Shown here piece after piece: positions 4,199 to 48,759 of a stretch of DNA of 48,759 nt. The first letter of the stretch is position 1; the number at the start of each line of letters is the position of its first letter. Position numbers and translations under genes: made by a program. The notes beneath the pieces were generated by a model, which worked only from the letters and a program-made list of their open reading frames with translations, was not told the origin of the DNA and did not search any database. The stretch lies in sequence record SRR31156797_15306; one strand, 5' to 3'.

Positions 4199-4276
4199 GG
4201 TATATTTATTAGATATGATAAATAGTTTAACAAATTACTAAATTAGTTAGTTTTGTAAAACTAAACAATCCTGATT

Positions 4277-4963: not shown

Positions 4964-4975
4964 TTACGCATTGAA

Positions 4976-6523: not shown

Positions 6524-6600
6524 CTGTCAATCCTTTGTAAATATTGAACGCCTAGATTGTTTTATCTGAACATTTAGAAGTTGTAAAAATGCATCACTAA

Positions 6601-6608
6601 TAATTTTG
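6601..6608 (+). promoter_or_regulatory. -7 promoter box for T9SS adhesin gene
   Basis: TAATTTTG fits TAnnTTTG, 36 nt upstream of ATG 6645. Confidence 0.45.
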
Positions 6609-6644
6609 AATACTACTTTAGGATCCGAATCAAAATTTAGTAGT

Positions 6645-9923: not shown

Positions 9924-9966
9924 TAACCCGTTAGTACTTAAGCTAAATCTCTATTCTATCAACCTC

Positions 9967-9993
9967 AAAACTCCCGGAATCCCGGGAGTTTTT
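9967..9993. terminator. Bidirectional intrinsic terminator
   Basis: AAAACTCCCGG-AATC-CCGGGAGTTTTT between convergent genes. Confidence 0.85.
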
Positions 9994-10932: not shown

Positions 10933-10940
10933 GTGTGCTT

Positions 10941-11771: not shown

Positions 11772-11896
11772 ATTCTTAATAATAAACGAAATTACGCAAT
11801 TTTATTATTCAAAGCCACATTTTTTATGTAATCATAAAATCTTTCTATCCATTTATTGAAAATACAGCACAAAATGAAAGTGATAATTGTTTGTGT

Positions 11897-11926
11897 TTTG
11901 TAAGTTAACAAATAGGCATATCTTTG
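11897..11926 (+). promoter_or_regulatory. lepA promoter
   Basis: TATCTTTG -7 box (11919-11926) with TTTG at 11897-11900. Confidence 0.55.
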
Positions 11927-11976
11927 TACGTTCTAATATTTTGTAAAATACAAAGGCTTCTAATTGCAGGAGAAAT

Positions 11977-13764: not shown

Positions 13765-13827
13765 TCAAATAGCCAAAAGTTCATATTAAAACTTTTTATA
13801 CCTTCGTATGCAGCTAATAATTGTGGT

Positions 13828-18554: not shown

Positions 18555-19814
18555 ATGAAACCGCTGATTATTATTCTCGTTAGCCTACTATTTCTAAACA
18601 CTTGTGCTACAATTTTCCTGGGACCCACTCAAAGTATTCAGTTAAACACTACTCCAAACGGCGCTGATGTATATATTAACGGCCAAAAAACAAGTAAAAA
18701 AACGCCTTGTATTGTAGAAGTGAAAAGAAGAGTAAAATCAAGTGAATTTAATAGTAGAAATCAATACAATTTTACTTTTGAAAAAGAAGGATACACCAGT
18801 GCAACACAAATAAAAGACGGCTCATTGCATTGGGCATATATTATGGATTGGTTTTATTATTTGGTGCCTGGAGTTGTAGACTTTGCCGTTGGTGCTACTC
18901 ACAAATACGATCAATTTGTCACAGCCACATTATCTGAAAAACAAATTCAAACCATAGTAAAAAAAGAGTTGGTTTATGTAGGCAATAATAATCAATACGT
19001 ATTTGATAGAAATTCATCGGTAGATCACAATATCCCTCAAATACCTCAAAAACATGAGATGCGTTTTGCATTAATAATTGGGAATGAAGATTATGCGTCT
19101 CACCAACTTGATCTCAATACTGAAGTGAATGTTGATTTTGCCCGGAATGATGCCAGTGCATTTAAAGAATATGCGATAAACACCCTCGGAATACCGGAAA
19201 GCAATGTCATATTTTTATTGGATGCCACATCTGGAAAAATGCAACAAGCCATTTCTAAAATGAACCTCATTATAAAAAATACAAATGGAAAAGCTGATGT
19301 ATTTGTTTATTATGCCGGACATGGTTTACCTGAAGAAACAACTAAAACTCCTTATTTAATGCCTGTGGATGTAAATGGTAAATATGCAACTTCAGGTATT
19401 AAGCTTCAATCCCTTTATGAAAAACTTACAGAATACCCTTCAAAACGCATTACCGTATTTATTGATGCTTGTTTTAGCGGAGGAGCTCGTAATCAGGGTC
19501 TTATTGCCGCAAGGGGCGTTAAAATAAAACCTAAGGAAGATAATCTGAAAGGCAATCTAGTAGTATTCTCAGCCAGTAGCGGAATGCAATCATCCCTTCC
19601 ATTTAAACCTGAAAGTCATGGCATATTTACATACTATTTACTTAAAAAACTTCAAGAAACTAGCGGAAAACTTAGTTATGAAGAGCTTTCCAGTTATTTA
19701 AACGAGAAAGTTCCGCTCAAATCAATCCTGCTTAATGATAAAGAGCAAACACCAAAAACTATTGTTAGTCCATCTGTTTTAACTAATTGGAAAGACTGGA
19801 AGCTAAATGAATAG
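18555..19814 (+). CDS. Lipoprotein with PEGA-like domain and caspase-family (peptidase C14) domain
   Basis: Lipobox-like LNT-C, P.GADVYING...KTP PEGA-like, FALIIGNEDY, YYAGHG (His) and IDACFSG (Cys), HGIFTYYLLK.L. Confidence 0.85.
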   Translation: MKPLIIILVSLLFLNTCATIFLGPTQSIQLNTTPNGADVYINGQKTSKKTPCIVEVKRRVKSSEFNSRNQYNFTFEKEGYTSATQIKDGSLHWAYIMDWFYYLVPGVVDFAVGATHKYDQFVTATLSEKQIQTIVKKELVYVGNNNQYVFDRNSSVDHNIPQIPQKHEMRFALIIGNEDYASHQLDLNTEVNVDFARNDASAFKEYAINTLGIPESNVIFLLDATSGKMQQAISKMNLIIKNTNGKADVFVYYAGHGLPEETTKTPYLMPVDVNGKYATSGIKLQSLYEKLTEYPSKRITVFIDACFSGGARNQGLIAARGVKIKPKEDNLKGNLVVFSASSGMQSSLPFKPESHGIFTYYLLKKLQETSGKLSYEELSSYLNEKVPLKSILLNDKEQTPKTIVSPSVLTNWKDWKLNE

Positions 19815-30542: not shown

Positions 30543-33500
30543 ATGAGAAAACTAACGACTACGATGAAAGCCCTCATGCTTGTAGCAGCCTTTATTTGGT
30601 CTGCAACAGGTGCGACGGCTCAAACGCTAATTATTAGCGAAGTAGTGGATGGCACCGGTAGCGGTGGTTATCCAAAATATGTTGAAATTACAAACGTAGG
30701 TGGTGCCTCTGCAGACCTTACAGGTATGAAAATTCGCAAATCATCTAATGGTGGTGCATTTGCAGATGCATATACATTTGGTGCTGTTTCATTACCTGCA
30801 GGCGAGAGTATTGTTGTTGCAAATTTAGACAATGCTACTGCAGGTCAATTATGGACAGATTTCGGTTTAACTGCTCCAACCAACGTGATTCATGGTGCAA
30901 CAAATATAAATGGTAACGGTGATGATGCCTATGCTTTTACAGATGGTTCTGACGTTATTGTTGATATTTACGGTGCAGAAGCTGATGGAACTGGACTAGA
31001 TTGGGAATACCTTGATAGTTATTCTTACAGAAACGCTAGTGTAGTTACTCCAAACACTACATTTGATGCTGCTGAATGGACTCTTCCTGGAATTAATGTA
31101 TTGGATGGTCAAGCAGCAGATCTATCATCATTCTTAACTCCTGGAACACACACATTTGATTCAGGCTCAGTTGATCCGGAACCAACCAACCACGTTACAA
31201 GTTTTGCAGCTGCTGAAGATGACGCATTTTCTATTACTTTAACTTGGGCAGACAATGACGGAGCACAAGCAGCTGATGCTTTCTTAATTAAAGCTAACAC
31301 AGGAGCAATTACTCCTCCTGTTGACTTAACTGAAGAAGCTGATGATACTGATTTAAGTGACGGTGCAGGAGCTGTAAATGTTGCTCACGGAACTGAAACT
31401 TATTCATTCACAGGTTTAGATGCTGCAACTACTTACAACTTTGAAATTTATCCTTACACTAACTCCGGTGCTGATATTGATTTCAAAACTGACGGGACTG
31501 TACCTTCTGCAAGTGCTACAACAATGGCTGGTGGAACTTTAGGTTGGTACAATCTTCAATGGCCGCACGATAGTACAACTACTGTAGGTGCTGAATATAT
31601 TGTTTATGCTCAGGCTTGGGAAGATGGTGTTACAAACGCTGCCGGACAAGGAGCTGGAATTGAAGTATGGATTGGATATAGCACTGACAATACTGACCCA
31701 AGTACATGGACAAACTGGGTACCTGCTTCTTATTTTGGAGAGTCAGGAAATAATGATGAATATACAGCTGACTTAAGCACAGCTTTAACTTCTGCTGGTA
31801 CTTATTACTATGCAAGTCGTTTCCAATTTAATGGTGGAGACTATATGTATGGTGGTACTACAGGTCCTTGGGATGGAACTGGTAGCATAAGCGGCGTAGT
31901 TAATATTACATGGGAGCCTATATCTTTACCTTACACTCGAGATTTTGAGACCGGTGATTTAAACACCGATGGTTGGACTACACAAGTTGTAGTTGGAGCT
32001 AATGATTGGTACTATAAAGAATTTAGTGGAGATCATTTTGCCGAGATGAAAAACTATTACGGAGGAAATACTGCTGCTGAAGCATGGTTTATATCACCAA
32101 CAATTGACCTTTCCGGTGCAACTACACCTCTATTTAGTTTCAACAATGCTTGCAACTATTCAGGTGATGATATAGCGGTTTATGTATCCACAGATTTTGC
32201 AGGAGATGTTACAACTGCAACGTGGGATACTCTTGCTCCTGTTTTATCTACTGGTGGTTGGAGTGAAGTAAATTCTGGAGATCTTGATCTAACTGCTTAT
32301 GTAGGTGGTGATGCTTATGTTGCCATAAAATATCTAGGAACTGATTCTGATGGTAAAACATGGCAAATTGATGATATTACACTTGTAGAAGCACCGCTTC
32401 TTCAAGCTCCTGTTATTGCTGATATTGCAACAACACCGGAATATCCAACTTCAAGTGATGCTATTTCAGTTTCAGCTGATGTTACAGATGCTGATGGAAC
32501 TGTTTCAACAGTTACATTAAACTGGGGAACTGAGTCAGGTACTTTAGGCAATTCAATTGCTATGATTCAAACTTCTAAAGCATACTACGAAACAGAAACA
32601 GATATTCCCGTTCAAGCAAATGGAACAACTGTATATTACGAAATCGTTGCAGAAGATAATGATGCACAAACTACAACTACAGAAGAAATGATGGTTGAGG
32701 TAATTGATGCTGCAACAACAACTATTCCTTATAATGAAACTTTTGATGCTGATTTAGGTGCAGCTTATCCATTCAGTGTATTAGGTGATACAAAAAATTG
32801 GTATCACAATGGATCAGATGCCGCTGCAAAAATGAATGGATACAACTCTGGTGAAGATGAAGAAGACTGGTTGATTTTACCAGCTGTTGATCTATCAGCT
32901 AAAGCTAATGAAGTAATTAGTTTTGATTCTTGGATGGATTATAGTTTTGCTGAGGATGCAACAAATTATTTCAAATTAATGTATTCAGAAGATTATGCTG
33001 GTACAGGTGATCCTTCAGCTGCAACATGGAATGAATTAACATTTGTAAAGCCAGCAGCTGATGATACATGGACTAGCTCAGGTGATGTTGATCTTTCAAG
33101 TATTAATGGAGCAAGCGTATATATTGCTTTCAAATATTACTATGATGCTGGAACTTATGCAACATGGCAAGTAGATAACATCAGTATTCGTGAATACAAT
33201 CCTGCAACTCAATTAGTAGTAACTTCTGTTACTCCAGAATCTCCTTATGTAGGACAATCATTCGAGGTTGTTGTTGAAGCACAAGATGCATCTGGAATTG
33301 CATCAAATGTTGAGCAAGATACAGATTTACAACTTAATTTAGCTGTAGGTACAGGTGCAATCACAGGTACCACAACAGGAACGATTACAACAGGTACTAG
33401 TTCGTTTACTTTCAGTGGATTAGCTTATGATGTTGTTGAAACAATTGAAGTAAATATTTCTGCTACAGCAGGAATGGCACTAACTACTACAGCTAACGAA

Positions 33501-35996
33501 AGTATTGTGGTTAATGAAGTGCCTGCTATCCCTAATGTATTTATCTCAGAATATATTGAAGGTTCTTCAAATAACAAAGCAGTTGAAATTTATAATGGTA
33601 CTGGCGCAGAACTTGATCTAACAAGTTTCTCTTTACAAAAGTCATCTAATGGTGATGGCGTTTGGGATAATGAAGCCGTATTAACTGGAACACTTGCTGC
33701 TGGTGAAGTATTTGTTGCTGCTAATGATGCTGCTGATGCTTCTATTTTAAATCTTGCTGATGCTGCTTATAGTTATCCGAGTCCTATTCACTATAATGGT
33801 AACGATGCAGTTGGGCTATTCTATAACGGACTATTAATTGATGTTATTGGAGTTCCTGACGAGGATACAATCTGGACAGTTGCTGGTGTTGTTGAAGCTG
33901 CAGCAGAACACACACTCGTTCGTAAATACCCTGATGTAACTATTGGTAATACAGATTGGGCTGCTTCAGCTGGTACAAATGCTGATGATTCAGAGTGGAT
34001 TGTTTATGATCAAAATGAATTCTCATACATTGGATGGCATGGTACACCTCCTACGGAGCCTGTTATTAACAATATTGTTGTTACACCGGAAGCTCCAACA
34101 TCTACTGACGCTGTTTCAATTTCAGCTGTTGTAACTGATGATGGAACTGTTGACTCCGTTTCTCTAAGCTGGGGATTAGTTTCTGGTACTTTAGACAACG
34201 TAATTAACATGTCTCTAAGTTCAGATGATATTTATGTAACCGACACTGATATTCCTGCTCAAGCTGATGGCACAATTGTATATTATCAGATTGTAGCTAT
34301 TGATAATGATATGAGTGAAACAATGACATCAGAAATGATGTATGAAGTTGAAGACATTAATATTGTAACGGTTCCTGATATCGCTACATTAAGAGGAAGC
34401 GCTCAAGATGGAACTGTTTATGAAATAACTGGTGAAGTAATTGTTACTTATCAGCAAGCAGAAGGTCCAAGAGTATTCTTACAAGATGCAACTGGTGGAA
34501 TCATGATCTATGATAGTAATGATGAAATCACAACTGTTTATGACAGATATGATGGTATTACTGGTGTGACTGGTACGCTAACAGAGTTTTCTGAGCTTGT
34601 AGAATTAGTTCCAACTGAAGATGCTGGCGCTCCAACATCAACCGGAAACACAATTACTCCAGAAACAGTTACAATTGCTGATCTGTTAGCTACTGTTTCT
34701 GATTATGAATCTGAGCTAATACTTCTTGAAAGTTTAACTTTTGAAGATGCTGGTGGAACTTTTGCTGCCGGAACAAATTACGATCTTACTAATGGAACTG
34801 AAACATTAACATTCAGAACACAGTTCTCAGAGGCTGATTATATTGGTGAAACAATTCCTTCTGGGCCTCAAAACATAGTTGCATTAGTTGGTAATTATAA
34901 TGGTACAGCGCAAATTACATCTCGTGATTTTGCTGATATGACAGCTGCTGCAACGGATGCTCCAATTGTTTCTAATATTGTAATTGATCCTGTTCAACCT
35001 ACAACTGCTGATGAAGTAAATGTAACAGTTACTGTTGTAGATGCTGATGCAAACTTAGCTTCAGTTGTGTTAATGTGGGGAGAAGAGTTAGTTGACAATG
35101 AAATTACTATGCAATTGGTAAGTGGTGACACTTGGGAAACTTCAAGTCCAATTCCTGCCCAAGACAACCTAACTGAGATTCATTTTACAATTACAGCAAC
35201 AGATGATGATAGTAATGAAGGTTCAGCAAGCAGTATGTATACTGTGTACGATCCTTATACTGGAGATCTTCCATTTGTTGAGCCATTCATTACAAGCTTA
35301 AATGAAATGACTGGTGTGAATGTTTCAGGTGATCAGGATTGGTATTGGGATGAATATGAAGGAGATACTTATGCAAGAATGTCTGGCTATGCTGGAGGGG
35401 CTGTTGCAAATGAAGATTGGTTGATTACTCCAGCTTTAGACTTCTCAGAAGTTACTAATGCCTCATTGATATTTGACGAAGCATTCAGATATGCTGGCGT
35501 AGCTGATGATGAATTAGAAGTGTATGTATCTGCTGACTATGACGGTGCTGGAGATCCATCTACTGCAACATGGACAGAAATGGTTATTACTGGACGTGCA
35601 TCTGGATTTGATCTTAACTTTGTTACTGTAAACGAAATTAGTCTTGACGATTATGCTGGAGAAGCTTCAGTATATGTAGCATTTAAATATACATCAACAG
35701 ACGAAATCGCTGCAACATGGTTAGTTGATAATATCATGATTGACGGTGGAGTTGGCATTGCAAACACAACTGTAAACAACCTATCTATCTATCCTAACCC
35801 TGCACAAAACGAAGTATTTGTAGCTGGTGTTGAGAACATTACTAATGTTCAGATTCTTTCATTAGACGGAAAAGTTGTAATGAGCGAACAAACTAACAAT
35901 AACCGTATCGATGTTTCATCTGTAAACGATGGAATGTACATCATGCGCGTTATTAGCGGAAATGAAGTTTATACTACACGTTTCGTGAAAGAATAA
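30543..35996 (+). CDS. Large acidic T9SS type A CTD surface protein with lamin-tail, jelly-roll (DUF5017/choice-of-anchor J-like), Ig-like and OB-like modules
   Basis: Signal peptide; LTD-like IISEV...YVEITN and FISEYIEGSSNNKAVEIYNGTG; 3x WLI.P..D.S...F.Y...WQ.D modules; 3x Ig-like repeats; C-terminal IYPNPA...GMYI...FVKE. Confidence 0.88.
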   Translation: MRKLTTTMKALMLVAAFIWSATGATAQTLIISEVVDGTGSGGYPKYVEITNVGGASADLTGMKIRKSSNGGAFADAYTFGAVSLPAGESIVVANLDNATAGQLWTDFGLTAPTNVIHGATNINGNGDDAYAFTDGSDVIVDIYGAEADGTGLDWEYLDSYSYRNASVVTPNTTFDAAEWTLPGINVLDGQAADLSSFLTPGTHTFDSGSVDPEPTNHVTSFAAAEDDAFSITLTWADNDGAQAADAFLIKANTGAITPPVDLTEEADDTDLSDGAGAVNVAHGTETYSFTGLDAATTYNFEIYPYTNSGADIDFKTDGTVPSASATTMAGGTLGWYNLQWPHDSTTTVGAEYIVYAQAWEDGVTNAAGQGAGIEVWIGYSTDNTDPSTWTNWVPASYFGESGNNDEYTADLSTALTSAGTYYYASRFQFNGGDYMYGGTTGPWDGTGSISGVVNITWEPISLPYTRDFETGDLNTDGWTTQVVVGANDWYYKEFSGDHFAEMKNYYGGNTAAEAWFISPTIDLSGATTPLFSFNNACNYSGDDIAVYVSTDFAGDVTTATWDTLAPVLSTGGWSEVNSGDLDLTAYVGGDAYVAIKYLGTDSDGKTWQIDDITLVEAPLLQAPVIADIATTPEYPTSSDAISVSADVTDADGTVSTVTLNWGTESGTLGNSIAMIQTSKAYYETETDIPVQANGTTVYYEIVAEDNDAQTTTTEEMMVEVIDAATTTIPYNETFDADLGAAYPFSVLGDTKNWYHNGSDAAAKMNGYNSGEDEEDWLILPAVDLSAKANEVISFDSWMDYSFAEDATNYFKLMYSEDYAGTGDPSAATWNELTFVKPAADDTWTSSGDVDLSSINGASVYIAFKYYYDAGTYATWQVDNISIREYNPATQLVVTSVTPESPYVGQSFEVVVEAQDASGIASNVEQDTDLQLNLAVGTGAITGTTTGTITTGTSSFTFSGLAYDVVETIEVNISATAGMALTTTANESIVVNEVPAIPNVFISEYIEGSSNNKAVEIYNGTGAELDLTSFSLQKSSNGDGVWDNEAVLTGTLAAGEVFVAANDAADASILNLADAAYSYPSPIHYNGNDAVGLFYNGLLIDVIGVPDEDTIWTVAGVVEAAAEHTLVRKYPDVTIGNTDWAASAGTNADDSEWIVYDQNEFSYIGWHGTPPTEPVINNIVVTPEAPTSTDAVSISAVVTDDGTVDSVSLSWGLVSGTLDNVINMSLSSDDIYVTDTDIPAQADGTIVYYQIVAIDNDMSETMTSEMMYEVEDINIVTVPDIATLRGSAQDGTVYEITGEVIVTYQQAEGPRVFLQDATGGIMIYDSNDEITTVYDRYDGITGVTGTLTEFSELVELVPTEDAGAPTSTGNTITPETVTIADLLATVSDYESELILLESLTFEDAGGTFAAGTNYDLTNGTETLTFRTQFSEADYIGETIPSGPQNIVALVGNYNGTAQITSRDFADMTAAATDAPIVSNIVIDPVQPTTADEVNVTVTVVDADANLASVVLMWGEELVDNEITMQLVSGDTWETSSPIPAQDNLTEIHFTITATDDDSNEGSASSMYTVYDPYTGDLPFVEPFITSLNEMTGVNVSGDQDWYWDEYEGDTYARMSGYAGGAVANEDWLITPALDFSEVTNASLIFDEAFRYAGVADDELEVYVSADYDGAGDPSTATWTEMVITGRASGFDLNFVTVNEISLDDYAGEASVYVAFKYTSTDEIAATWLVDNIMIDGGVGIANTTVNNLSIYPNPAQNEVFVAGVENITNVQILSLDGKVVMSEQTNNNRIDVSSVNDGMYIMRVISGNEVYTTRFVKE

Positions 35997-36125
35997 GCGC
36001 TACCGCGCGAATCTTTCGCGTGGGTGTACGAACTAAAATAAAAGTAACAAAAGAGGCCACCTCTCGGTAGCCTCTTTTTTTTGCTTACGCACACCTCACT
36101 AACTCTCCTAAAGGAGAGAACCTCC
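35997..36125 (+). repeat. REP-terminator-REP module, copy A
   Basis: AATCTTTCGCGTGGG shared with 45691-45705; hairpin AGAGGCCACC..GGTAGCCTCT; ACCTCACTAACTCT shared with 48725-48738. Confidence 0.75.
36049..36082 (+). terminator. Intrinsic terminator after T9SS gene
   Basis: AAAAGAGGCCACC-TCTC-GGTAGCCTCTTTTTTTT. Confidence 0.8.
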
Positions 36126-36949: not shown

Positions 36950-36981
36950 CTTGCAGGTATTTTTACCTGGTTTTATATTTG
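36950..36981 (+). promoter_or_regulatory. Promoter of the fibre/T9SS/Rhs cassette
   Basis: CTTG (36950-36953) - 20 nt - TATATTTG (36974-36981). Confidence 0.65.
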
Positions 36982-37030: not shown

Positions 37031-38785
37031 ATGAAAAAAGTGATTACAGTTTTAGTGATCGTGTGCAGCACATTATCACTATTTGCTCAAAATGAAACAA
37101 AAATTGAAAACAGCAAAGGGACACAACCTTTACCCGCAACAGAAGATGCATTCACATTTGACGGAAGATATATTCTTTCTAATCGGGATGCTTCCAGAAT
37201 TGGACTAGGAACATCTAGCCCCTTAAAATTCTTCCATGTACAAGGAGATAGTTATTTCTCTTCAAAAGTTGGAATAGGGACCTCTAATCCTAGTACTGCT
37301 TTAGATGTAAATGGAACAATTAAGGCAACTAGTATTGAAGCTTCTAACTATATTGGTATAAAAGAAGGATTATGGGAAGAAAGAGCCACGGGAACTATCT
37401 ATTATAATGGAAGTATCGGCATTAATATTGCAGAGCCTAGAGAAGCTTTTCATATAGGAACTGGAAATGCATTAATTGAAGGTAATATTACGGGGAATAG
37501 TAATTTATTCATAAATGGCAAAGTAGGAATTGGAAAAGAAACAGCAGATTCAGAACTTGATGTTGCTGGTGATTTTTCAATCATTGGAGACAACACAGCC
37601 TTTGGGAAAGGAAAACTGATTTTTAGTAATAATAGTCAAGTTACAAAATTCCACCAAACCAGCGAGGGTTTAAATATAGTACCGAGTACTGATCTTGATA
37701 CAAGGACTATTATTAAATCAAATGGAGATGTTGAAGTTGGGGGTGATTTTAAATCACATAGTATTATTACGGGAGGAGTTACTGCAACAAGTTTAAATCT
37801 TGCGATGCCTTTTAGCAATTCAGAATTAAACTTTTCTGCTGCAAATGGTGTAACTTCTAAAATTCAATACTCTGAAAATGGATTAATTATTTTTCCGGGA
37901 GAAGAACTAGATACTGAAACAATATTGCGACCAAATGGAGATTTAGAAGTAAGTGGAAAAATTCAAACTGGAACCGTTAGTTCCGGAAAAGTTGAAACCA
38001 CCAATTTAGAATTAATAATGCCTTTTTCTCCAAATAAATTTAATTTGACGCAAACATCAGAAGGTCTAGAAATTATTCCTTCAGAAGATCCAACCAAGAA
38101 AACTATATTTAAGTCAAACGGGGATGTGGAATTCACTGGGAATATTATTGGAGTTGAATCATCACATTGGAATTTCGAAAATAGCAATTTAACTTTTACA
38201 GAAGGCAATGTAGGTATTGGAACAGATAACCCAGATTACAAACTTGATATAAGAGGATTTGTTTCAATTGGTGGAAGTGATTTAAGATTAGGGATACATG
38301 ACGGACGAGATCAAGGTACAAAGTTAGCAAATAGAGCTCTGGTACATGGTGAATTAGATAATTTAATTATCAATTATAGTGGCGACTTTGAAGGTGGTAT
38401 TAGAATGATGGGTCCTAAAGTTTCTGTAGATGGAGATTTTACAACAGGCGTTACCAAACTTCTATCAGACAAAATGGTAGTAGACGGAACAATCTATGCT
38501 ACAGAAGTACAAATCGTAAATAGCTCAGAATTACCACAATCTGACTACGTTTTTGAATCTGATTACAAACTACGTACATTAGAAGAAGTTGAGCAATTTG
38601 TGAAAACGAACAAGCACCTTCCTGAAGTTCCTTCAGCAGCTGACTTTAAAGAAAACGGATACTCAATTGGACAAATGGATGATATCCTTTTACGCAAAGT
38701 GGAAGAGCTTACCTTATACATTATTGCTCAGGAAAAAAGAATTCAAAAGCTTGAAGAAGAGAATAATAAGCTGAAAGGAGAGTAA
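37031..38785 (+). CDS. Secreted tail-fibre-like protein with VGIGT repeats and C-terminal peptidase S74-like chaperone/coiled coil
   Basis: Signal peptide; repeated (V/I)GIGT..P...LDV.G; three internal repeats ending NGD(V/L)E..G; C-terminal DYVF..DYKL..L.EVE.FV..NKHLP.VPSA...LL.KVEELTLY.I coiled coil. Confidence 0.8.
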   Translation: MKKVITVLVIVCSTLSLFAQNETKIENSKGTQPLPATEDAFTFDGRYILSNRDASRIGLGTSSPLKFFHVQGDSYFSSKVGIGTSNPSTALDVNGTIKATSIEASNYIGIKEGLWEERATGTIYYNGSIGINIAEPREAFHIGTGNALIEGNITGNSNLFINGKVGIGKETADSELDVAGDFSIIGDNTAFGKGKLIFSNNSQVTKFHQTSEGLNIVPSTDLDTRTIIKSNGDVEVGGDFKSHSIITGGVTATSLNLAMPFSNSELNFSAANGVTSKIQYSENGLIIFPGEELDTETILRPNGDLEVSGKIQTGTVSSGKVETTNLELIMPFSPNKFNLTQTSEGLEIIPSEDPTKKTIFKSNGDVEFTGNIIGVESSHWNFENSNLTFTEGNVGIGTDNPDYKLDIRGFVSIGGSDLRLGIHDGRDQGTKLANRALVHGELDNLIINYSGDFEGGIRMMGPKVSVDGDFTTGVTKLLSDKMVVDGTIYATEVQIVNSSELPQSDYVFESDYKLRTLEEVEQFVKTNKHLPEVPSAADFKENGYSIGQMDDILLRKVEELTLYIIAQEKRIQKLEEENNKLKGE

Positions 38786-38787
38786 TC

Positions 38788-39258
38788 ATGAAAAAGATAA
38801 CCATATTAATGTGGTTGCTTATGGCTTTGGGTTTCCATGCCATAGGGCAATCAACCTATGAAGTACAGTTTGATTATGATGCTGCAGGCAATCGCACAAA
38901 AGTAATTGTAGTAAATTTACTTACCCAGTTACAAAGCACTAATGAAGAGTTGATTACTGATGGTTTAATCAGCGAGGAACAATTCATTAACGAAGAAAAC
39001 GGTATAAGCGATAATGTATCTGACCAGCAATTCACCATATACCCCAACCCTACCAAAGGATTGGTATATTACCGAAGCACTGTACCTGAAAACACAGAAG
39101 GTACAGTAATAATTGCAGATGCAAATGGTCGTATTGTAGAAAATACCCAATTACAAGCTAATGGTACGTTGGACTTCTCCAAGTTTTCCAACGGAATATA
39201 TTTCGTAAGAGTGACCCTCAAAGGTGACACCTCTTATTGGAAAATAATTAAAGAATAG
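38788..39258 (+). CDS. Small T9SS type A CTD protein with N-terminal YD (YDAAGNR) strand
   Basis: Signal peptide, FDYDAAGNR, acidic linker, IYPNPTKG...GIYFVRV...WKIIKE. Confidence 0.85.
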   Translation: MKKITILMWLLMALGFHAIGQSTYEVQFDYDAAGNRTKVIVVNLLTQLQSTNEELITDGLISEEQFINEENGISDNVSDQQFTIYPNPTKGLVYYRSTVPENTEGTVIIADANGRIVENTQLQANGTLDFSKFSNGIYFVRVTLKGDTSYWKIIKE

Positions 39259-39279
39259 AAAACAGCTAAATAATTAATT

Positions 39280-42200
39280 ATGAAATATATAATATTCATA
39301 ATATTACTATTAACGGGTAATATTATATATAGTCAAAATAAGTCCGAGAAATCTGATGAAAAGGAAAGTGTTTTTCCACCAATGCAAGTTTTATTGGATG
39401 ATGATAATGATGGAATCTCTGTTGGGAATGAGTTGCTTAACCCAAATTTCATTTGGAATGAAATAGATCCAATTACGCTTGAAATTATTGAATATGAGGA
39501 ACCTGTGCACAAGTTTGCCAAAGCAAGAGATGTGATTAAATTACAGGAAGGATTCTCATATACTGCAATACCAGATGCAAAATTTTCTGCGAAAACAGAC
39601 CAGACAATAATTCTACCTGCAACAGATCATTACGCAGAATTTAGCAGCATTGACTTTTCAGCTTTTGATATGTCATTACCTGTTGGAAGCATAAACGGTA
39701 GTTTTAATGTAACTCCAACAGGAGCTGCCACCTACTCTATGCAAATCGAAGTTCCTCAAGGAATTCAAGGTTTGCAACCAAACCTTTCCGTATCATATAA
39801 TAGTATGGCTGGGATGAGTAATATGGGTAAAGGTTTTAGTTTATCTGGTGTAAGTGCAATTACCAGAACAAACCAAACACCATATTATGATGACAAGTGG
39901 GAAGAAGTTGATTTTATGGGTGATAAATTTATGCTTGATGGCCAACGATTAATTGTAACTAACTCTCTAGTTTATGGCGCTGACGGTACAGAATATGGTA
40001 CTGAGTCTTATTCTCCAATTAAAGTTACCTCCTACGGAAGACATGGTAATGGATCAAATAACCCAAGATTTTTTGAAGTGCAAAATGCTGCAGGACAAAC
40101 TCTAACATATGGCCAGGGTGGTAACTCTTTCCATAAGGTGGGTGGTTTTGAGGATGAGTATTCCCCCGCATACATGTGGTTGTTACATGAAGTAAAGGAT
40201 AAAAACGACAATAAAATGTTATACCATTATGGTGTAAGAGATGGTGAGCATTACATTCAAAAAATTGAATACATCAATAACGGATCAGAGTACTTGGGCG
40301 AAATAGAATTTATTCATGAAGAGCACGGACATCCTCAAATAAAAAATGTGGGTGGAGAAATGTTTAATGGTTATATTAACCAAACACTTCTTTTAAAAGA
40401 AATTAGGGTTAACCTTAATGGAAAATCTTACCGCAGGTATGAATTTGATTATTTTGAAGACATTTTGCCCAAATTATACCAGGCAACTGTTTTTGATGGT
40501 AATGGAAACAAATTGAATAGCACAAAATTTGATTGGGGAGGAGTTTTAGAAGACCAATTAGATTTTGAAGTCGAATCTTTATGCCCATCGTCTGGCGATA
40601 ATATTTCATACTTTCCTTGCGATTTTGATGGTAATGGAAGGACAGATTTATTGAAACTTTTAGATTATAGTAATGGATTTACAATGTATAAAACATTACA
40701 GTTTTATCAAGCTGGAAGCTCTCAACAATGTGACAATTTTAAGCCATTAGGATCATTTAATTTTGGGTACCCAGATATTGTTGCTCCTCTTTTTTGCGAT
40801 TTTGATGGAGATGGTAAAGATGATATTCTTTATATGACTTTTAATAGTTCCAATGGAGGGAACTATAATGATGGAGATTATACTTTTCATTTTGTAAATA
40901 ATGTCCCACCTTTCGGAAGCACACATGGCCCTGCAGTTGAAGATTATGGTTTTGTAATGTATGAGGATGTTGATTTTAACAACTACGATAATTATCCAGG
41001 CCCATTTTATCTTACAGGTGATTTCGATGGTGATGGTAAATATGAAATTTGCTTTAATGACGATCATCACTTGCGTTTTCTTAAATATGATGAAACAAAT
41101 TTTATACAGGAGTATAGCAATATTTCATTCGATGGAAAACCAGGTAACGACGATCCTTATCCTTTAGTTGGTGATTTTAATGGAGACGGTATTCATGATA
41201 TCTTTTTTGTTCAAGATAGTGAAGTTAAAGTTTTCACATTTGAAGATGATTTAACAACTATAAAAAAAATTAGTGAACTAGATCTGCATGCGGTCTTTAA
41301 TGACATCCGAGATCCCAAACTTGCAGATATAAATGGAGATGGTAAAAGCGATTTATTTTTCCGTATTCCAGGATATAATTGGAAAATGGCTATATCGAAT
41401 GGTGAGGGATTTAGCGTTATTGACTTCGATGAAATTGATGGTATAAATCTGAATGCTGATGAACATGAATTGTATTTTACTGATGTGAATAGTGATGGAA
41501 TAACTGATATAGTACATGTGGATAACGGTATTATAGAAAAGTCGGGTACTGTTATTAATTTTTACTTTGGGGATAACAGTTTTAAATTTAAAAAATTAGT
41601 TTGGGAGGAACCTACAGATTTAGGAAATTTCAAAATAATTAAATCCATGGTTGATGGCAAAGATGTAATGACTGATATGAATGGAGATGGTTTTGTTGAT
41701 TTTTTAATTGATGGTGAAGGATGGCATGAAACACTTCAATTAATAAAGTTTTCATTTGATCCCGCAACTAATCCAAATAATATCAAGAATATAAAAAATG
41801 GGTTAAATAATAACATACAAATTCAATATAAATCTGGATTAAAACTTGTTGGAATTGAAGAGCATGAGAATGAAAACATTCATTCTTTACGCCATCGTAC
41901 AATGCGCATGGTCTCAAACACTAATACAATAGGTGCAAACATTACTTACACTTATGGGCCTATGTTTTATCACAAACAAGGCAAAGGATTTTTAGGAACA
42001 AAGAGTTTTGGTACTTATAATTCTACGACGAAACAAAGAACAGAAACTGAATTTACAATTAACTCAGATTTTTTTGTCAACTATGTTTCTAGCGTTACTA
42101 ATAAACTTATAAACGAAACTGTTTCATCTAGCAGTTCAGTATATGAATTTGTATCGATAAATAATCAATTTTATCAAAAATTGGATAAATCAATATCAAC

Positions 42201-45200
42201 AGATGAATTAGCAGATATTCAAACGGAAACCTCTTATACTTATAATAATACCTACAAGGTAAAAACAGTAACATCAGAAATAAGCAAATCCGGAGGTGCT
42301 GCAGAAAAAACAGTATTAGTTGAAAACTTTTATGTGGATGAATCTGGATTAACAGATAACCGGATTGACTATAAAACCACAACAACAACTATTGGTGCTA
42401 ATTCTCACACTCAAACTACTGATTATTCTTATGATGGAAATTGGAACATAACTGCCAATAATGTTAGTTTTGGAGATGGACGGTTCTTAAATAAAGCTTA
42501 TTCAGAATTTGTAAAAGGTAATCCGGGAAAAGTTGTAACAAGTGGAACCAATATGGATCATATCCAAACAGATAAATTTGAGTATGATAATTCGAAAAGA
42601 TTTGTTACTAAGCATACCTTACCCAATAATGACTTTACAACAAGCTCTTTAGATCCATTTACAGATTTAGTTTTATCAAAGACCGATGCTACAGGAAAAA
42701 CTATTTCTATGAGATACGGCAAATTTGGTGCACTTGAGGAATCCATAGATGCTTTTGGAAACTCAACAACTTTTTCATCATCATACACCTCAGAAAATAA
42801 TGCTTTTTATAAAAAGACAGTTAAAACTGCGGGAATGGGAATAGCTGTAGAATATTTTAACGAACGGGGTCAAAGTGTATTAAAGGAAACTCCGGGTGCA
42901 AATGGTACGGTACAAACCAGAAAAGAGTATTATGATGAAGCTGGAGAGGACTTTGGAAAACAAAAACTAGTATATGAACCTTCATATGGAGCTGCCACAG
43001 AAATAGCAGCGGAATATTGGTATGATGATTATGGTAGAGTGGATTATGTTATAAGTAAAAATGATAATAATTTGACAACAGATTATGAAATTACTTCCAG
43101 TTCATTAACAACTACTGTAACTCAGCCCAATGGATTGTATCAAACAACTCAAAGCAATGCTTGGGGTGGAACAATTAGTGTTACTGATAATGGTGGAACC
43201 ATTAATTATAGTGGTTTTAGTGCCTTGGGTATGCCTAAATATGTATCTTATTCAGGCGCCTCATGGTGGTTTAATTATGATGATCAGGGACATAGAACAC
43301 GCTTAAATGATCCTGATGCCGGAGTAAGAGAATTCGTTTATGATGCCATAGGCAATATTAAATCAAAACAGTTACCTTCTAATGAGATTGTGGGATATGA
43401 ATATGATGAACTTAATAGGTTAAAAAAGAAAACCAATACAACCCCCGGTGAAGGTGAAATAAATTATAGTTATGTTCAAACAGGCAATGGTAAAGGTCAA
43501 TTAAAAAGTATTGTCAACTATAATAGTATTGATTACAATATGACCTATAATTCTGATGACAGAGTTTCGAAAAAAACATATGACATAGTTGGAGAACAAT
43601 TTAATGTTGAATATGAATATGATGAATTAGGAAGAACAACTTTAAAAACCCTTCCAGATGGCACTACTATTGGCTATAGTTATTATGAAACTGATGGTTC
43701 CATCAAAGAAATATTTGTAAATGGAAATGTTGTCGCAAAAGATATCATTTATGATGCCAAGGACAGAGTTACTAATATGGACTTAGGATCTGTTATGAAC
43801 TTTAGTCAGGAATTTAATAAGTATGACTATCCAACATTCAGAAAAATTGAATTAGATGGAAATCCAATTTTCCATCAGTTATACATTTTTGATGAAAAAG
43901 AAAATTGGCTACTTATGCGTAAAGATGTAGTTAAAAGTATAATTGAGAAATTTGCATATGATGACCAACAGAGATTAATAAGAAGTGTTGTGAACAATGT
44001 AGTTCAAATTGATATGGGGTATTATCTCAATGGTAATATTGATTATAAAAATGATGTTGGAACCTACCAATACGAGAATGGAAACCATGCTGTTACTAAT
44101 ATCTCCCCATTAGACGAATCATATTTCAATGATCTGGGTGGATTTACAGGAGATACTGTTCAGGATATTTCATATAACAGTTTTAATAAACCAGTTAGAA
44201 TAGAGTTTGGTAGTCATGTAATGAATATAGAATATGGACCGGATAAACATCGCAGACATTTTGTCTTAACCCAAGATGGTACAAAAATTTGGGAGTGTTA
44301 CTATGCTGATGATTTTATTTATGATTGGCGAAATGGCCAGGAAAGAACAATTGTAACAGTTGCTGGGCCTGATGGATTATTGGGTCTCAATATCACAGAA
44401 AATGATGAATCATATTTCTATTATGCAGCCACAGATTATTTAGGGTCACTATTAGCATTATATACTCCTGAAGGTAATTTAATGGAGGAATACAACTACG
44501 ATGCCTGGGGTAGAAGAAGAAATGCAGATACCTGGACTTATGATAATGTACAAACACCAACATTAACGCGCATTGGATATACTGGCCATGAGCATTGGGA
44601 TGAACTCCAACTAATAAATATGACTGGCCGTATGTACGATGCACGCATTGCTCGTTTTTTAAGTACGGACCCATATGTGCAAATACCAGGTAATACGCAA
44701 AATTTAAATAGATATGCCTATGCTTTGAATAATCCATTAATATATTCGGATCCTGATGGAGAGTTTATTGTGGGAGCAATTATTGTCGGAGCATTAGTTG
44801 GTGCATATACTGGAGGAATGATAGCTAATGGAGGTGAAAAGAATCCACTACAGTGGGAACTTACATCTGGTGAAACTTGGGGGTATATGGCAGCAGGAGC
44901 TCTTATTGGTGGTGCTGCTGGAGCTGCTGGAGGTGCTGCAGGGAGTGCAGCTATGAAGGCTGCCGGTGGAGGAATTGCAGGAGGTATAGCTGGTGGCGCG
45001 ATAGGCGGAATGTCTAGTGGAGTTATAAATGGAGGAGGAATGGCTGCACTTGCTGGAGGAAGTAAAAGTGATATCTTTAGAGGCATGAGCAGAGGTTTCA
45101 TGCTGGGTACTGTAACTGGTGCAGTAGGAGGAGGATTATTTGCGGGTGCTCACAAACTACTTAATAGTAATGCGACTTACTTATTACCTGTGAATACCAT

Positions 45201-45633
45201 ATCATATATGACTGCTTCAACAGGTTCTCAAGTTGCCGCAAATTTGATTACAAACAAAAGAGCTTTCAAAGGAAATGATTTTGGGTTTAATATGGGTATT
45301 ATTAGTCCATTAAATGCTGACAGAAAGGCTTATAGTTCTAATTATATCGAAAAGAAGTTGTTCTATAATGAAATTGAAGAAATGTATAGAAACCCTAAAA
45401 CGACAAAGGTCACAAGATCCAAGTTGTTTTGTCTTTTTAAGAAGCCAGTAACAACATTAAATTCAAATGGAGACTTAACAATGCAAGTTCAATTTAAGGA
45501 GCACAAACATAAAACATGGGGAATATTTGGCTTCAAATGGCCTTACATAGGTGTTGATCGCCATACTTTTACGAAGATTTACCAACCTGATTTTCAAAGT
45601 AAGGTGAACATGAGCTTTTTTCTGTATGAGTAA
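39280..45633 (+). CDS. Signal-peptide Rhs protein, TcB-TcC-like fusion (SpvB-like N-terminus, FG-GAP propeller, YD shell, Rhs core, variable C-terminus)
   Basis: G.F.V..TGAATY...I.VP.G..GLQP.LS..YNS SpvB-like; multiple (G)DF(D/N)GDG..D repeats; G.GFLG; YD repeats; DYLGS, YDAWG.RR, GYTGHE, R.YD..I.RFLS.DP, NRYAY..NNP..Y.DPDGE at 44749-44763. Confidence 0.92.
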   Translation: MKYIIFIILLLTGNIIYSQNKSEKSDEKESVFPPMQVLLDDDNDGISVGNELLNPNFIWNEIDPITLEIIEYEEPVHKFAKARDVIKLQEGFSYTAIPDAKFSAKTDQTIILPATDHYAEFSSIDFSAFDMSLPVGSINGSFNVTPTGAATYSMQIEVPQGIQGLQPNLSVSYNSMAGMSNMGKGFSLSGVSAITRTNQTPYYDDKWEEVDFMGDKFMLDGQRLIVTNSLVYGADGTEYGTESYSPIKVTSYGRHGNGSNNPRFFEVQNAAGQTLTYGQGGNSFHKVGGFEDEYSPAYMWLLHEVKDKNDNKMLYHYGVRDGEHYIQKIEYINNGSEYLGEIEFIHEEHGHPQIKNVGGEMFNGYINQTLLLKEIRVNLNGKSYRRYEFDYFEDILPKLYQATVFDGNGNKLNSTKFDWGGVLEDQLDFEVESLCPSSGDNISYFPCDFDGNGRTDLLKLLDYSNGFTMYKTLQFYQAGSSQQCDNFKPLGSFNFGYPDIVAPLFCDFDGDGKDDILYMTFNSSNGGNYNDGDYTFHFVNNVPPFGSTHGPAVEDYGFVMYEDVDFNNYDNYPGPFYLTGDFDGDGKYEICFNDDHHLRFLKYDETNFIQEYSNISFDGKPGNDDPYPLVGDFNGDGIHDIFFVQDSEVKVFTFEDDLTTIKKISELDLHAVFNDIRDPKLADINGDGKSDLFFRIPGYNWKMAISNGEGFSVIDFDEIDGINLNADEHELYFTDVNSDGITDIVHVDNGIIEKSGTVINFYFGDNSFKFKKLVWEEPTDLGNFKIIKSMVDGKDVMTDMNGDGFVDFLIDGEGWHETLQLIKFSFDPATNPNNIKNIKNGLNNNIQIQYKSGLKLVGIEEHENENIHSLRHRTMRMVSNTNTIGANITYTYGPMFYHKQGKGFLGTKSFGTYNSTTKQRTETEFTINSDFFVNYVSSVTNKLINETVSSSSSVYEFVSINNQFYQKLDKSISTDELADIQTETSYTYNNTYKVKTVTSEISKSGGAAEKTVLVENFYVDESGLTDNRIDYKTTTTTIGANSHTQTTDYSYDGNWNITANNVSFGDGRFLNKAYSEFVKGNPGKVVTSGTNMDHIQTDKFEYDNSKRFVTKHTLPNNDFTTSSLDPFTDLVLSKTDATGKTISMRYGKFGALEESIDAFGNSTTFSSSYTSENNAFYKKTVKTAGMGIAVEYFNERGQSVLKETPGANGTVQTRKEYYDEAGEDFGKQKLVYEPSYGAATEIAAEYWYDDYGRVDYVISKNDNNLTTDYEITSSSLTTTVTQPNGLYQTTQSNAWGGTISVTDNGGTINYSGFSALGMPKYVSYSGASWWFNYDDQGHRTRLNDPDAGVREFVYDAIGNIKSKQLPSNEIVGYEYDELNRLKKKTNTTPGEGEINYSYVQTGNGKGQLKSIVNYNSIDYNMTYNSDDRVSKKTYDIVGEQFNVEYEYDELGRTTLKTLPDGTTIGYSYYETDGSIKEIFVNGNVVAKDIIYDAKDRVTNMDLGSVMNFSQEFNKYDYPTFRKIELDGNPIFHQLYIFDEKENWLLMRKDVVKSIIEKFAYDDQQRLIRSVVNNVVQIDMGYYLNGNIDYKNDVGTYQYENGNHAVTNISPLDESYFNDLGGFTGDTVQDISYNSFNKPVRIEFGSHVMNIEYGPDKHRRHFVLTQDGTKIWECYYADDFIYDWRNGQERTIVTVAGPDGLLGLNITENDESYFYYAATDYLGSLLALYTPEGNLMEEYNYDAWGRRRNADTWTYDNVQTPTLTRIGYTGHEHWDELQLINMTGRMYDARIARFLSTDPYVQIPGNTQNLNRYAYALNNPLIYSDPDGEFIVGAIIVGALVGAYTGGMIANGGEKNPLQWELTSGETWGYMAAGALIGGAAGAAGGAAGSAAMKAAGGGIAGGIAGGAIGGMSSGVINGGGMAALAGGSKSDIFRGMSRGFMLGTVTGAVGGGLFAGAHKLLNSNATYLLPVNTISYMTASTGSQVAANLITNKRAFKGNDFGFNMGIISPLNADRKAYSSNYIEKKLFYNEIEEMYRNPKTTKVTRSKLFCLFKKPVTTLNSNGDLTMQVQFKEHKHKTWGIFGFKWPYIGVDRHTFTKIYQPDFQSKVNMSFFLYE

Positions 45634-45654: not shown

Positions 45655-45796
45655 CCCCCGCCAGTGCGCAAAAAGTAGTTCGACAAAATCAATCTTTCGC
45701 GTGGGCGTACAATATAAAAATTACAAACGCTATAATAGAGGCTGCTGAAAGGTGGTCTCTTTCTTTTTGTCTTGTTTTCACACCTCACTGATTCTC
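45655..45796 (+). repeat. REP-terminator-REP module, copy B (continues at 46827-46843 after the IS)
   Basis: AATCTTTCGCGTGGG, ACAAACGCTATAA-AGAG.CTGC...AAGGTGG.CTCTTTCTTTTTG, CACCTCACTGATTCTC. Confidence 0.75.
45737..45768 (+). terminator. Intrinsic terminator after Rhs gene
   Basis: AGAGGCTGCT-GAA-AGGTGGTCTCT followed by TTCTTTTT. Confidence 0.7.
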
Positions 45797-45804
45797 ATAT
45801 AATA

Positions 45805-46826
45805 ACGTGAGTTCGATGTAAGAAATATTCAATTTTATTTGAAAAAGAAGAGGTTTTTGATTACATTTAAGTATCTAACATTCAAATATTTAAAACCAAA
45901 ACCTCTCTTAAAATGATAGATAAAATTACTGAAATTTTCTGTTTAATCGATGATTTTTGCAAAGAATATGACAAAGCCAAGGAGGGACATACCCTTGATG
46001 AAATAAGCGGGAAAAAACGGCGTAATCGTAAGTTTAAAAGTCTGATAGCGAGGTAATTACTATTCTTGTTGTTTTCCATCTAAAGCAATTTAGAAATCTC
46101 AAACACTTCTATATCAACTATGTACGGAAGCACATGCAAAAAGAATTTCCCGAAACAGTATCATATAATCGGTTTGTTGAACTTCAGCAAAAAGCTTTTC
46201 TTCCAATGTGTGTATTTCTTCAAACATGCTGTCTGGGAGAATGTACTGGGATTTCGTTCATTGATTCAACACCCATTAGAGTATGCCATATAAAGAGAGA
46301 AAAGCAACACAAAGTTTTTGGTGAGTTTGCAATGAAAGGACATTGCTCAATGGGTTGGTTCTATGGATTTAAGCTTCATATAGTCATAAATGACAAAGGA
46401 GAAATTATTGACTTTTTATTTACTCAAGCTAATGTTGATGACCGTGAACCTCTGAAAAACAAAAATTTTCATGAAAAACTATTCGGAAAGCTATTTGGTG
46501 ATAAAGGATACATTAGTCAAAGCCTGTTTGAGCAACTATTCATAGATGGTATTCATTTAGTTACAAAGGTCCGTAAGAATATGAAAAACAGCTTAATGCA
46601 TACTTCAGACAAAATATTACTTCGCAAACGAGCTCTTGTTGAAACAGTTAATGATGAGCTGAAAAACATGTGTCAAATTGAACATACCAGACACAGAAGC
46701 GTCGATAATTTCCTTTCTAATCTTATATCAGGCTTAATTGCATATCATTTTCTTCCTAAAAAACCATCATTAAATCTGGAAGTCGTTGATGAAAAACGAA
46801 TTAGAAGAGCTGCTTAGAACTCACGT
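45805..46826 (+). mobile_element. IS982-family insertion sequence (1022 bp)
   Basis: Terminal IRs ACGTGAGTTC (45805-45814) / GAACTCACGT (46817-46826); 7-bp target duplication TATAATA (45798-45804, 46827-46833); IS982-type DDE transposase. Confidence 0.92.
45913..46817 (+). pseudogene. Frameshifted IS982 transposase
   Basis: Frame from ATG 45913 (MIDKITEIFCLIDDFCK...RRNRKFK) shifts at ~46039-46040 into SDSEVITILVVFH...SYNRFVEL...IDSTP...WFYGFKLH...GDKGYIS...R.LVETVNDELKN; consistent with a 1-bp deletion (AAAAGTCT for AAAATGTCT). Confidence 0.85.
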
Positions 46827-48612: not shown

Positions 48613-48759
48613 CCCCCTCTAGCGCAAGCGTCCGTTTGTGCTGGATTTGAACAAGAAAGTAAAAGAACACAAACGCTATAAAAGAGACTGCCGTAAGGTG
48701 GCCTCTTTCTTTTTGCCAGCGCGGACCTCACTAACTCTTCCCGATTTTTTCGGGACAGG
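48613..48759 (+). repeat. REP-terminator-REP module, copy C (runs off window)
   Basis: CCCCCTCTAGCGCAAGCGTCCGTTTGTGCTGG, ACAAACGCTATAAAAGAGACTGCCGTAAGGTGGCCTCTTTCTTTTTG, ACCTCACTAACTCT followed by TCCCGA..TCGGGACAGG. Confidence 0.75.

Follow-up and report, generated by a model that had tools for sequence, protein, structure and literature searches.

We found a three-gene cassette for a putative secreted Rhs toxin on a stretch of DNA of 48,759 nucleotides (sequence record SRR31156797_15306), hereafter called the window. The cassette comprises three open reading frames (ORFs), all on the plus strand, that encode a fibre-like secreted protein (37031..38785, 584 aa), a small protein combining one YD repeat with a C-terminal domain (CTD) for secretion by the type IX system (T9SS; 38788..39258, 156 aa), and a large Rhs protein (39280..45633, 2117 aa). 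We explain this locus best as an operon of three genes that encodes a secreted, polymorphic toxin of the Rhs family, belonging to the "SpvB/TcB-type" of Bacteroidota. Linkage within the cassette exceeds chance, and the genes probably form one functional, T9SS-associated toxin module. We further propose, with a probability of roughly 0.5, that the YD-CTD protein couples the CTD-less Rhs cocoon to the T9SS and to the cell surface, and that fibres or fused lectin domains provide the targeting. Judged from sequence comparisons, the cassette recurs across Bacteroidota, and this co-occurrence lends partial support to the export interpretation, which we regard as plausible.

The small YD-CTD protein starts with a putative signal peptide (MKKITILMWLLMALGFHAIG, then QST), in which AlphaFold2 (AF2) predicted a helix at residues 3-18; YEVQFDYDAAGNR comes next, then a linker of polar residues and, last, the type-A CTD. 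Its single YD repeat (YEVQFDYDAAGNRTKVIVVNLL; residues ~24-45, 38857..38922 on the plus strand, as are all cassette features given below) is the sole conserved element outside the CTD. The acidic/polar linker that follows (residues ~46-83, 38923..39036) varies in length and sequence among relatives and is predicted to be disordered. The T9SS type-A CTD (residues 84-156, 39037..39255) ends in WKIIKE and was recognized by both PF18962 (8e-13; 48.9 bits, cut-off 27) and TIGR04183 (1e-14; 54.3 bits, cut-off 23). At E<=1e-3, at least 174 proteins of about the same length belong to this family. Residues Y30, D31, G34 and N35 as well as W151-K155 (WKIIK) are invariant across 36 diverse members, which share 27-38% identity with the exception of the four closest. 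In the AF2 model the beta-sandwich of the CTD reached a predicted local distance difference test (pLDDT) score of 88-96, the linker residues 39-67 stayed below 50 and the hairpin region at ~58-64. Such low model confidence at the YD hairpin would be consistent with instability of the hairpin alone, and the anatomy of hairpin, disordered linker and CTD fits an adaptor or tether. A complex prediction of residues 22-156 of the small protein with residues 22-880 of the Rhs protein (its front 40%), run twice and without alignments or controls, gave a score of 0.00, which speaks neither for nor against an interaction.

Searching public genomes, each species represented once, with the small protein yielded 79 loci. 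Our script defined a YD-CTD ORF by a YD motif located 100-170 aa from the end of the CTD, and 52 such ORFs were present in 50 loci. A homologous SpvB/Rhs gene lies downstream of 44 of them; it starts within 400 nt on the same strand in 40 cases and stands behind one intervening gene in the other four (a fibre gene in L028, L046 and L073). One more YD-CTD gene precedes an orphan Rhs C-terminal fragment, one has too little flanking DNA, and six have no Rhs neighbour. Two additional genes, with a variant motif (L009) or a frameshift (L015), are also found 5' of an Rhs gene, and a third (L039) is cut by the contig end. Among 27 control loci that hold ordinary CTD proteins only, none has a homologous SpvB/Rhs neighbour; in L079 the CTD protein itself contains RHS repeats. 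The earlier note on this DNA had staked its proposal on the three families occurring together in other genomes, and for the YD-CTD and SpvB/Rhs families these counts bear it out. The fibre gene recurs as well, in three gene orders and in a minority of loci (12/53 of those centred on the small gene and 11/48 of those centred on SpvB). Hosts of the loci centred on the small gene include Bacteroidales, Marinilabiliales-type and other Bacteroidota. A metagenome scan for close relatives returned only two loci, both weak and uninformative.

The linkage was also visible from the side of the Rhs gene. In five genomes with the pair, the small gene is upstream of six out of eight SpvB genes, while the remaining two encode proteins of 3.3 thousand aa with a different upstream gene. 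In a phylum sample of 401 genomes we obtained SpvB matches in 52 genomes (78 rows). Of these rows 48 were taken (frames of 1,625-2,415 aa, E>1e-30) and examined for 4 kb upstream, and for genome G111 only also downstream; the 30 rows dropped were 15 strong canonical ones, seven with frames >=2,825 aa, six with frames <1,600 aa, the centre genome and a second stretch from one gene. Upstream of the 48 SpvB sites were the small gene alone (17), a fibre gene and the small gene (5), one or more fibre genes only (6) or neither (20). Each of the five fibre-only sites of G111 is followed, a few kb downstream and on the same strand, by a small gene of full length, and ORF maps of two of them read fibre, Rhs, small unknown ORF, YD-CTD gene. 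Taken together, a YD-CTD gene is linked to the Rhs gene at 27 of the 48 sites, fibres occur at 11 and all three genes at ten, and the gene orders, with mini for the small gene, are fibre-mini-Rhs, mini-fibre-Rhs and fibre-Rhs-X-mini; these sites are not independent of each other, with G111 contributing five, G347 four and G127 three. SprA was found in all five genomes with the pair and in G161, G253 and G257, that is in 8/8 carriers checked. In the phylum sample at E<=1e-40, SprA was present in at least 291/401 genomes and at least 46/52 SpvB-positive ones; these counts are lower bounds and not valid as a test of association with SpvB, because this threshold misses SprA in G161, G253 and G257, where it matches at ~1e-23.

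Several related arrangements were seen along the way. Locus L088 encodes, at 2123-14210 on the minus strand, a 3329-aa SpvB/FG-GAP/TcdB_midN/RHS protein that ends in Tox-URI2; 16 nt 5' of its gene is that of a 693-aa protein whose end resembles a CTD only weakly (E 5e-4) and which lacks a YD motif. This protein represents a second partner kind for larger Rhs proteins. About 13 Bacteroidota genomes (e.g. G336:C53 and G266:C118) carry canonical full-length SpvB matches (E 1e-76 to 1e-115, frames of 2,450-2,750 aa). This class is nearer to classic TcB, and SprA was absent at least from G314 at the default threshold and from G266 at E<=1e-40. In G172, three tandem genes for window-type fibres are found upstream of a SpvB site (L134 498-4300, minus strand), with no YD-CTD gene within 4.3 kb. 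The idea that presence of a fibre tracks an N-terminal extension of the Rhs protein was rejected, as L115, L116 and L118 carry fibres without the extension. In locus L069 (5558-12109) two YD-CTD genes are interspersed among small ORFs and orphan C-terminal pieces of Rhs genes (444 and 472 aa); a transposase of the Mutator family adjoins, and the array looks as if made by internal deletions. A CTD in cis is found in the 1895-aa protein of L079 (4541-10228), which combines DUF6531, RHS repeats in 12 stretches and DUF7619 with a T9SS CTD, and also in the YD-repeat proteins P0307 and P0380.

The Rhs protein (39280..45633) bears a putative Sec signal. It contains a SpvB-like region (residues 146-328, 39715..40263; PF03534 at 5.9e-12), an FG-GAP beta-propeller (residues ~450-770, 40627..41589; FG-GAP_3 in four stretches and a match to the TcdB2 propeller), a TcdB_toxin_midN domain (residues 797-931, 41668..42072; PF12256 at 8.2e-9), a YD/RHS-repeat shell (residues ~932-1739, 42073..44496; RHS_repeat PF05593 at 5.2e-6, TIGR01643 at 2.6e-8, YD_repeat_2x and Rhs-core profile matches) and an Rhs-associated core (residues 1740-1827, 44497..44760; TIGR03696 at 3.8e-17). 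PF03534, PF13517/PF01839 and PF12256 all scored above their cut-offs, and five DNA repeat copies lie in the FG-GAP region at 40798-41707. The Pfam/NCBIfam scan found no PAAR, VgrG or Por_Secre_tail domain in the protein. The SpvB-like, FG-GAP, YD and Rhs-core regions and the absence of PAAR, VgrG and a CTD of its own are as the earlier note had read them from the letters. A family profile built from 23 homologues was compared with the PDB; its positions 104-286 correspond to YenB 32-247 and 535-877 to TcdB2 396-790, and the best matches of the shell were Rhs cores of type VI secretion systems (T6SS; 4.5e-53 to 1e-32). These domains and profile matches together indicate that the protein is a TcB-TcC-like cocoon made of a single chain, whose N-terminus is of the Sec type. 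Residues R1784, D1787, D1797, D1824 and G1827 (YSDPDG) of the core are invariant in the 23 sequences. The core is the presumed autoproteolysis site and, because the residues of the core motif are invariant, cleavage is likely by analogy.

The C-terminal cargo of 290 aa (44761..45630), delimited by comparison with homologues, consists of a hydrophobic glycine-zipper segment and a rare domain. The Gly-rich hydrophobic stretch at its start is common to many homologues, whose ends then diverge, and the glycine-zipper match itself is weak (E 0.035). Among 1.84 billion representatives searched, the last 168 aa matched 20 at E<=1e-3; the domain had no family match, and a structure-atlas look-up gave no lead (best score 0.75). 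The C-terminal ends vary among the aligned Rhs homologues, and one related gene ends in Tox-URI2.

The fibre-like protein (37031..38785) consists of a putative signal peptide, repeats of the form 'GIGT..P...L.V.G' and a C-terminal module. It matched no NCBIfam family and no Pfam family at E<=0.01, Peptidase_S74 included, and its matches to PHROG tail fibres were weak (1e-7). A profile of the C-terminal 200 aa of ten locus-linked homologues matched the solved Bdellovibrio fibres 8OND (5.5e-12), 8OML (1.2e-8) and 8ON4 (1.8e-6), and the match runs through the repeated GIGT..P..L.V.G motif. The C-terminal module of ~80 aa (ADYVF...HLPEIPS...EELTLY and a long helix) occurs in hundreds of Bacteroidota proteins. 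It occupies the place of the Peptidase_S74 chaperone in other fibres and aligned with S74-type fibres at 97.6% in hhalign. In the set of S74-type fibres S216, D217 and K221 are invariant, while the aligned stretch of the window-type fibres reads P.ADYVF and has no invariant Ser or Lys, that is no Ser-Lys dyad. The description of the fibre as S74-like in the earlier note is only loosely right, because the module is without the invariant Ser, Asp and Lys; what stands is the profile-profile relation to S74-type fibres at other loci. The AF2 model of the monomer had a mean pLDDT of 54.5, with confident helices at 517-583 and a poor remainder. Partner fibres elsewhere are of the PF13884 Peptidase_S74 type (L005, L011, L019, L022), carry a Gp34_trimer domain (L045) or are fused to a Lamin Tail Domain (LTD; L028).

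The YD-CTD module is not confined to small proteins. Of 120 longer relatives listed, 30 have the YD-linker-CTD module at their C-terminus, and 29 of these 30 fall among the 34 best-scoring matches. Precomputed Pfam assignments of the fused forms include PF00932 (LTD), PF13385 (a ConA-like lectin according to one source), PF00754, PF13306 and PF03724, by which several of the additional N-terminal domains appear to be lectin- or adhesin-like. The module is fused behind an LTD in L012, behind a DUF1565-like beta-helix in L035 and behind larger regions in L024, L002, L033 and L041.

How might these parts work together? The hairpin of the YD-CTD protein would pair in the periplasm with an exposed edge of the beta-sheet shell of the Rhs protein, and the CTD would bring the resulting complex to the T9SS. 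After processing of the CTD, the remaining stub of hairpin and linker would tether the cocoon at the cell surface. Recognition of the target would be the task of a separate, putatively trimeric fibre, as in the window, or of lectin and adhesin domains that other loci place N-terminal to the YD-CTD module in a single fused protein. The cargo, freed by autoproteolysis, would leave the shell upon contact, and its glycine-zipper segment might aid entry into the target membrane. The most specific part of this proposal is a sorting signal in trans, in which a YD protein of one hairpin extends the sheet of a CTD-less cocoon of ~240 kDa, pulls it through the T9SS and tethers it on the surface; we put this part forward tentatively, as a possibility with odds well short of even.

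A number of observations weigh against the export proposal. No YD-CTD gene is found within 4 kb upstream (or downstream for G111) at 20 of the 48 Rhs sites, and G375, G327, G351 and G141 have homologous Rhs genes and no full-length small gene genome-wide at E<=1e-12. Conversely, the six YD-CTD genes without an Rhs gene (L027, L029, L040, L045, the second copy in L069 and a dubious one of 407 aa in L077) show none in at least 3.8 kb of DNA on their downstream side. Among these six, three are orphans that end in WKVVKE (L027 587-1045, L040 9995-10459, L029 482-952); they come from metagenome-assembled genomes of Bacteroidales, two of them from water-buffalo gut, and in L027 and L040 tsaE, clpB and htpG come next instead of an Rhs gene. 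The idea that the hairpin requires a free N-terminus was rejected, because the fused forms place it internally. The fibre carries no CTD either, and the proposal offers no route out for it. Size is a further point: the SprA pore measures ~70 A. The smaller Rhs cores of T6SS effectors already measure ~100 x 60 A in the available part of one report (bioRxiv 2024.02.26.582050), so that passage of the cocoon might pose a size problem. Finally, no plus-strand ORF of at least 30 aa that could serve as an immunity gene is present between 45633 and the insertion sequence (IS) element at 45913.

Some of these points would be met if the YD-CTD protein served as an anchor only. The cocoon would then exit by outer-membrane vesicles, lysis or an unrecognised signal, and would be captured or retained by the YD-CTD protein at the surface, where the lectin or LTD domain, if present, would be displayed too. 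Linkage and anatomy would be identical to those expected for export in trans. The many Rhs genes of this type without a partner imply that export cannot depend on the partner everywhere, a folded cocoon may exceed the size of the translocon, and the available part of PMC13744359 lists the P. gingivalis Rhs protein PGN_1818 in a table of the outer-membrane-vesicle proteome. We nevertheless consider an anchor alone rather unlikely: no alternative export route was identified, the partners would have to meet outside after separate export, and the tight coupling in one operon, with 2 and 21 nt between the genes, fits assembly ahead of export no less well.

A second alternative dispenses with physical coupling. 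The YD-CTD protein would be an independent T9SS cargo that is co-regulated with rhs, for example an adhesin, a lectin stalk, a folding seed or a regulator, and its YD motif would be a relic of an ancestral rhs gene. The orphan copies next to housekeeping genes, the Rhs genes without a small gene and the resemblance of the fused forms to ordinary small CTD adhesins would all agree with this. A relic, however, would hardly hold Y, D, G and N invariant over 36 members, nor would it stay beside rhs across several orders and three gene orders, and the absence of linkage at all 27 loci with ordinary CTDs also speaks against it; this alternative seems distinctly improbable to us. Still more remote is a Tc-like toxin against eukaryotic cells, with the cocoon as BC unit and the fibre in place of TcA for receptor binding and membrane crossing: the front half of the Rhs protein is TcB-like, a fibre is co-encoded and no immunity gene follows the toxin in the window, but the fibre has neither TcA similarity nor a predicted channel-forming part and is missing from most loci, the ends of homologous Rhs proteins are typical of antibacterial polymorphic toxins (Tox-URI2 in one, HExxH-like in others), the Rhs genes of G111 are followed by small ORFs that are possible immunity genes, ORFs of 166 and 132 aa behind the Rhs genes of L139 and L140 are candidates for this role, and the absence of such a gene here may stem from the IS element just downstream. 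As the earlier note had stated, neither a TcA-sized nor a TcA-family ORF is present in the window (ORF list and family scan); PF18276 (TcA) matched none of five related genomes, and control genomes were equally without a match, which makes this search uninformative.

Coupling of the cocoon to the T9SS by the YD-CTD protein, our preferred reading, can be set beside several known systems. With the BC components of Tc toxins (TcdB2-TccC3, YenB/YenC) the Rhs protein shares the SpvB start, the FG-GAP propeller, TcdB_midN, the RHS shell and the Rhs core. It differs in being a single chain with a Sec signal, ~100 extra N-terminal residues and a Bacteroidota host, and in having, instead of a TcA in the window, a T9SS-tagged YD hairpin partner and sometimes a fibre, as well as a glycine-zipper start of the cargo. 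The T6SS Rhs effectors (Tse15, Tre23, Tse5, RhsP) have a similar YD shell, core motif and polymorphic C-terminal toxin, whereas here there is no PAAR, VgrG or prePAAR, the front is TcB-like, a Sec signal is present and the window holds no T6SS genes. WapA-type Rhs toxins of Gram-positives are Sec-exported, hold their YD shell at the surface by wall-binding repeats and act in contact-dependent inhibition. If our reading is right, the Rhs protein would have in common with them the Sec signal and a YD shell retained at the surface, but the Gram-negative envelope here needs an additional outer-membrane step, and retention would be achieved by a separate T9SS-processed partner. The window fibre shares the GIGT..P..L.V.G motif with the mosaic adhesive trimer fibres of Bdellovibrio (8OND, 8OML; PMC10769870, available part) and with S74 phage fibres, and its C-terminal module holds the S74 position of S74-ended fibres and is profile-related to them. 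Unlike these, it has no S74 match or Ser-Lys dyad and is encoded beside an Rhs toxin, not at a phage or predator invasion locus.

The closest precedents come from genomic descriptions. According to the available part of PMC6775972 (2019), the T9SS-cargo gene PGN_1817 of P. gingivalis 381 is upstream of PGN_1818, the largest of the rhs genes; T9SS genes and this region were induced together, and a mechanistic link was suggested. In Apibacter, most rhs genes are SpvB/TcdB-fronted and adjoin type-A sorting-domain genes, as the available part of PMC8125069 (2021) reports. Both loci resemble ours in that a gene with a CTD or sorting domain stands beside a CTD-less rhs gene, and both papers, as far as their available text goes, suggest a link to the T9SS; this likeness is one of gene description. 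The available parts of the two papers make no mention of a single-YD hairpin, fused lectin forms or a fibre, and secretion was not tested there. TANFOR toxins of Bacteroidetes are likewise CTD-less, their genes are enriched beside those of CTD-bearing T9SS substrates, and they are proposed to be T9SS-dependent (PMC7073777, available part), but they use a scaffold other than Rhs, and their neighbours are large SprB/Fn3/PKD proteins and not a minimal hairpin-CTD protein. A "TcdB/TcaC" trafficking class has been defined in PMC3482391 (available part). In the open literature, with subscription journals and supplements outside its scope, our search returned no work on how the system functions, on the hairpin with one YD repeat, on the fusions or on the accompanying fibre. 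The earlier note knew of no mechanistic characterisation of such gene trios; this holds for the mechanism, but the adjacency of CTD and rhs genes was already in print (PMC6775972, PMC8125069).

The layout of the cassette agrees with an operon. The gap between the fibre gene and the small gene is 2 nt and that between the small gene and the Rhs gene 21 nt, and the ORF coordinates are identical to those in the earlier note, which had also reported the common orientation and a single terminator. We could confirm the latter as a terminator-like hairpin with a T-run 3' of the Rhs stop (45737..45770, plus strand; stem at 45737-45760 by structure scan), which closes the operon and lies inside a repeated intergenic element; within 37031-45633 the plus strand has just one weak hairpin of six pairs, in the Rhs gene. 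The ~1 kb upstream of the cassette is non-coding and contains hairpins that resemble terminators. The single promoter given in the earlier note could not be confirmed, as a sigma-70 promoter scan performed at chance (50 sites vs 48.5 expected). By eye we noted a candidate Bacteroidota-type promoter at 36951..36981 on the plus strand (TTG at 36951-36953, TATATTTG at 36974-36981), 50 nt 5' of the fibre start codon, which fits what we take to be the -33/-7 consensus of this phylum (TTG / TAnnTTTG). By eye, the N-termini of all three proteins look like signal peptides of the Sec type that have a Gln at +1, with predicted cleavage between LFA and QNE in the fibre, AIG and QST in the small protein and IYS and QNK in the Rhs protein; AF2 placed an N-terminal helix in the fibre and in the small protein.

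The other genes of the window are ordinary chromosomal ones such as rpsI/rplM, suf genes, lepA and thyA/folA. Three T9SS CTD genes are present, namely the small gene and the ORFs at 6606-9923 and 30543-35996. The latter, directly 5' of the cassette, encodes a 1817-aa protein with two LTD stretches, DUF5689 and a T9SS CTD; elsewhere an LTD is fused to the YD-CTD module (L012) or to a fibre (L028). The repeated intergenic element occurs three times, after this upstream CTD gene (36075-36106), after the Rhs gene (45716-45795) and at the end of the window (48662-48738), and is made up of a terminator-like hairpin and then '...CACACCTCACT.A.TCT'. An IS-type DDE transposase (45913-46817; DDE_Tnp_1_3, 5.7e-73), apparently split into ORFs of 47 and 227 aa, sits right beyond the Rhs terminator at the position expected for an immunity gene. 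A 419-aa protein with a caspase domain (Peptidase_C14; 18555-19814) adjoins a Crp-family regulator.

If the sorting signal does act in trans, the Rhs protein would be the first cargo known to hitch-hike through the T9SS, and its shell the first of the Rhs kind to have one repeat encoded by a separate gene, and the interchangeable targeting parts, fibre gene or fused lectins, would make the system a modular contact-dependent weapon of Bacteroidota. Members of this phylum from gut, oral, rumen and marine habitats encode many SpvB-type Rhs and other polymorphic toxins without a known signal for export across the outer membrane, and the exit route of such toxins is a question raised and left unanswered in the available parts of PMC7073777, PMC6775972 and PMC8125069. 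A partner composed of a hairpin and a sorting domain is a testable candidate for this missing export link, and suggests that lists of T9SS cargo based on the CTD may overlook hitch-hiking proteins. The recurrent pairing with fibres and lectins, furthermore, may open a way to study how targets are recognised when bacteria compete.

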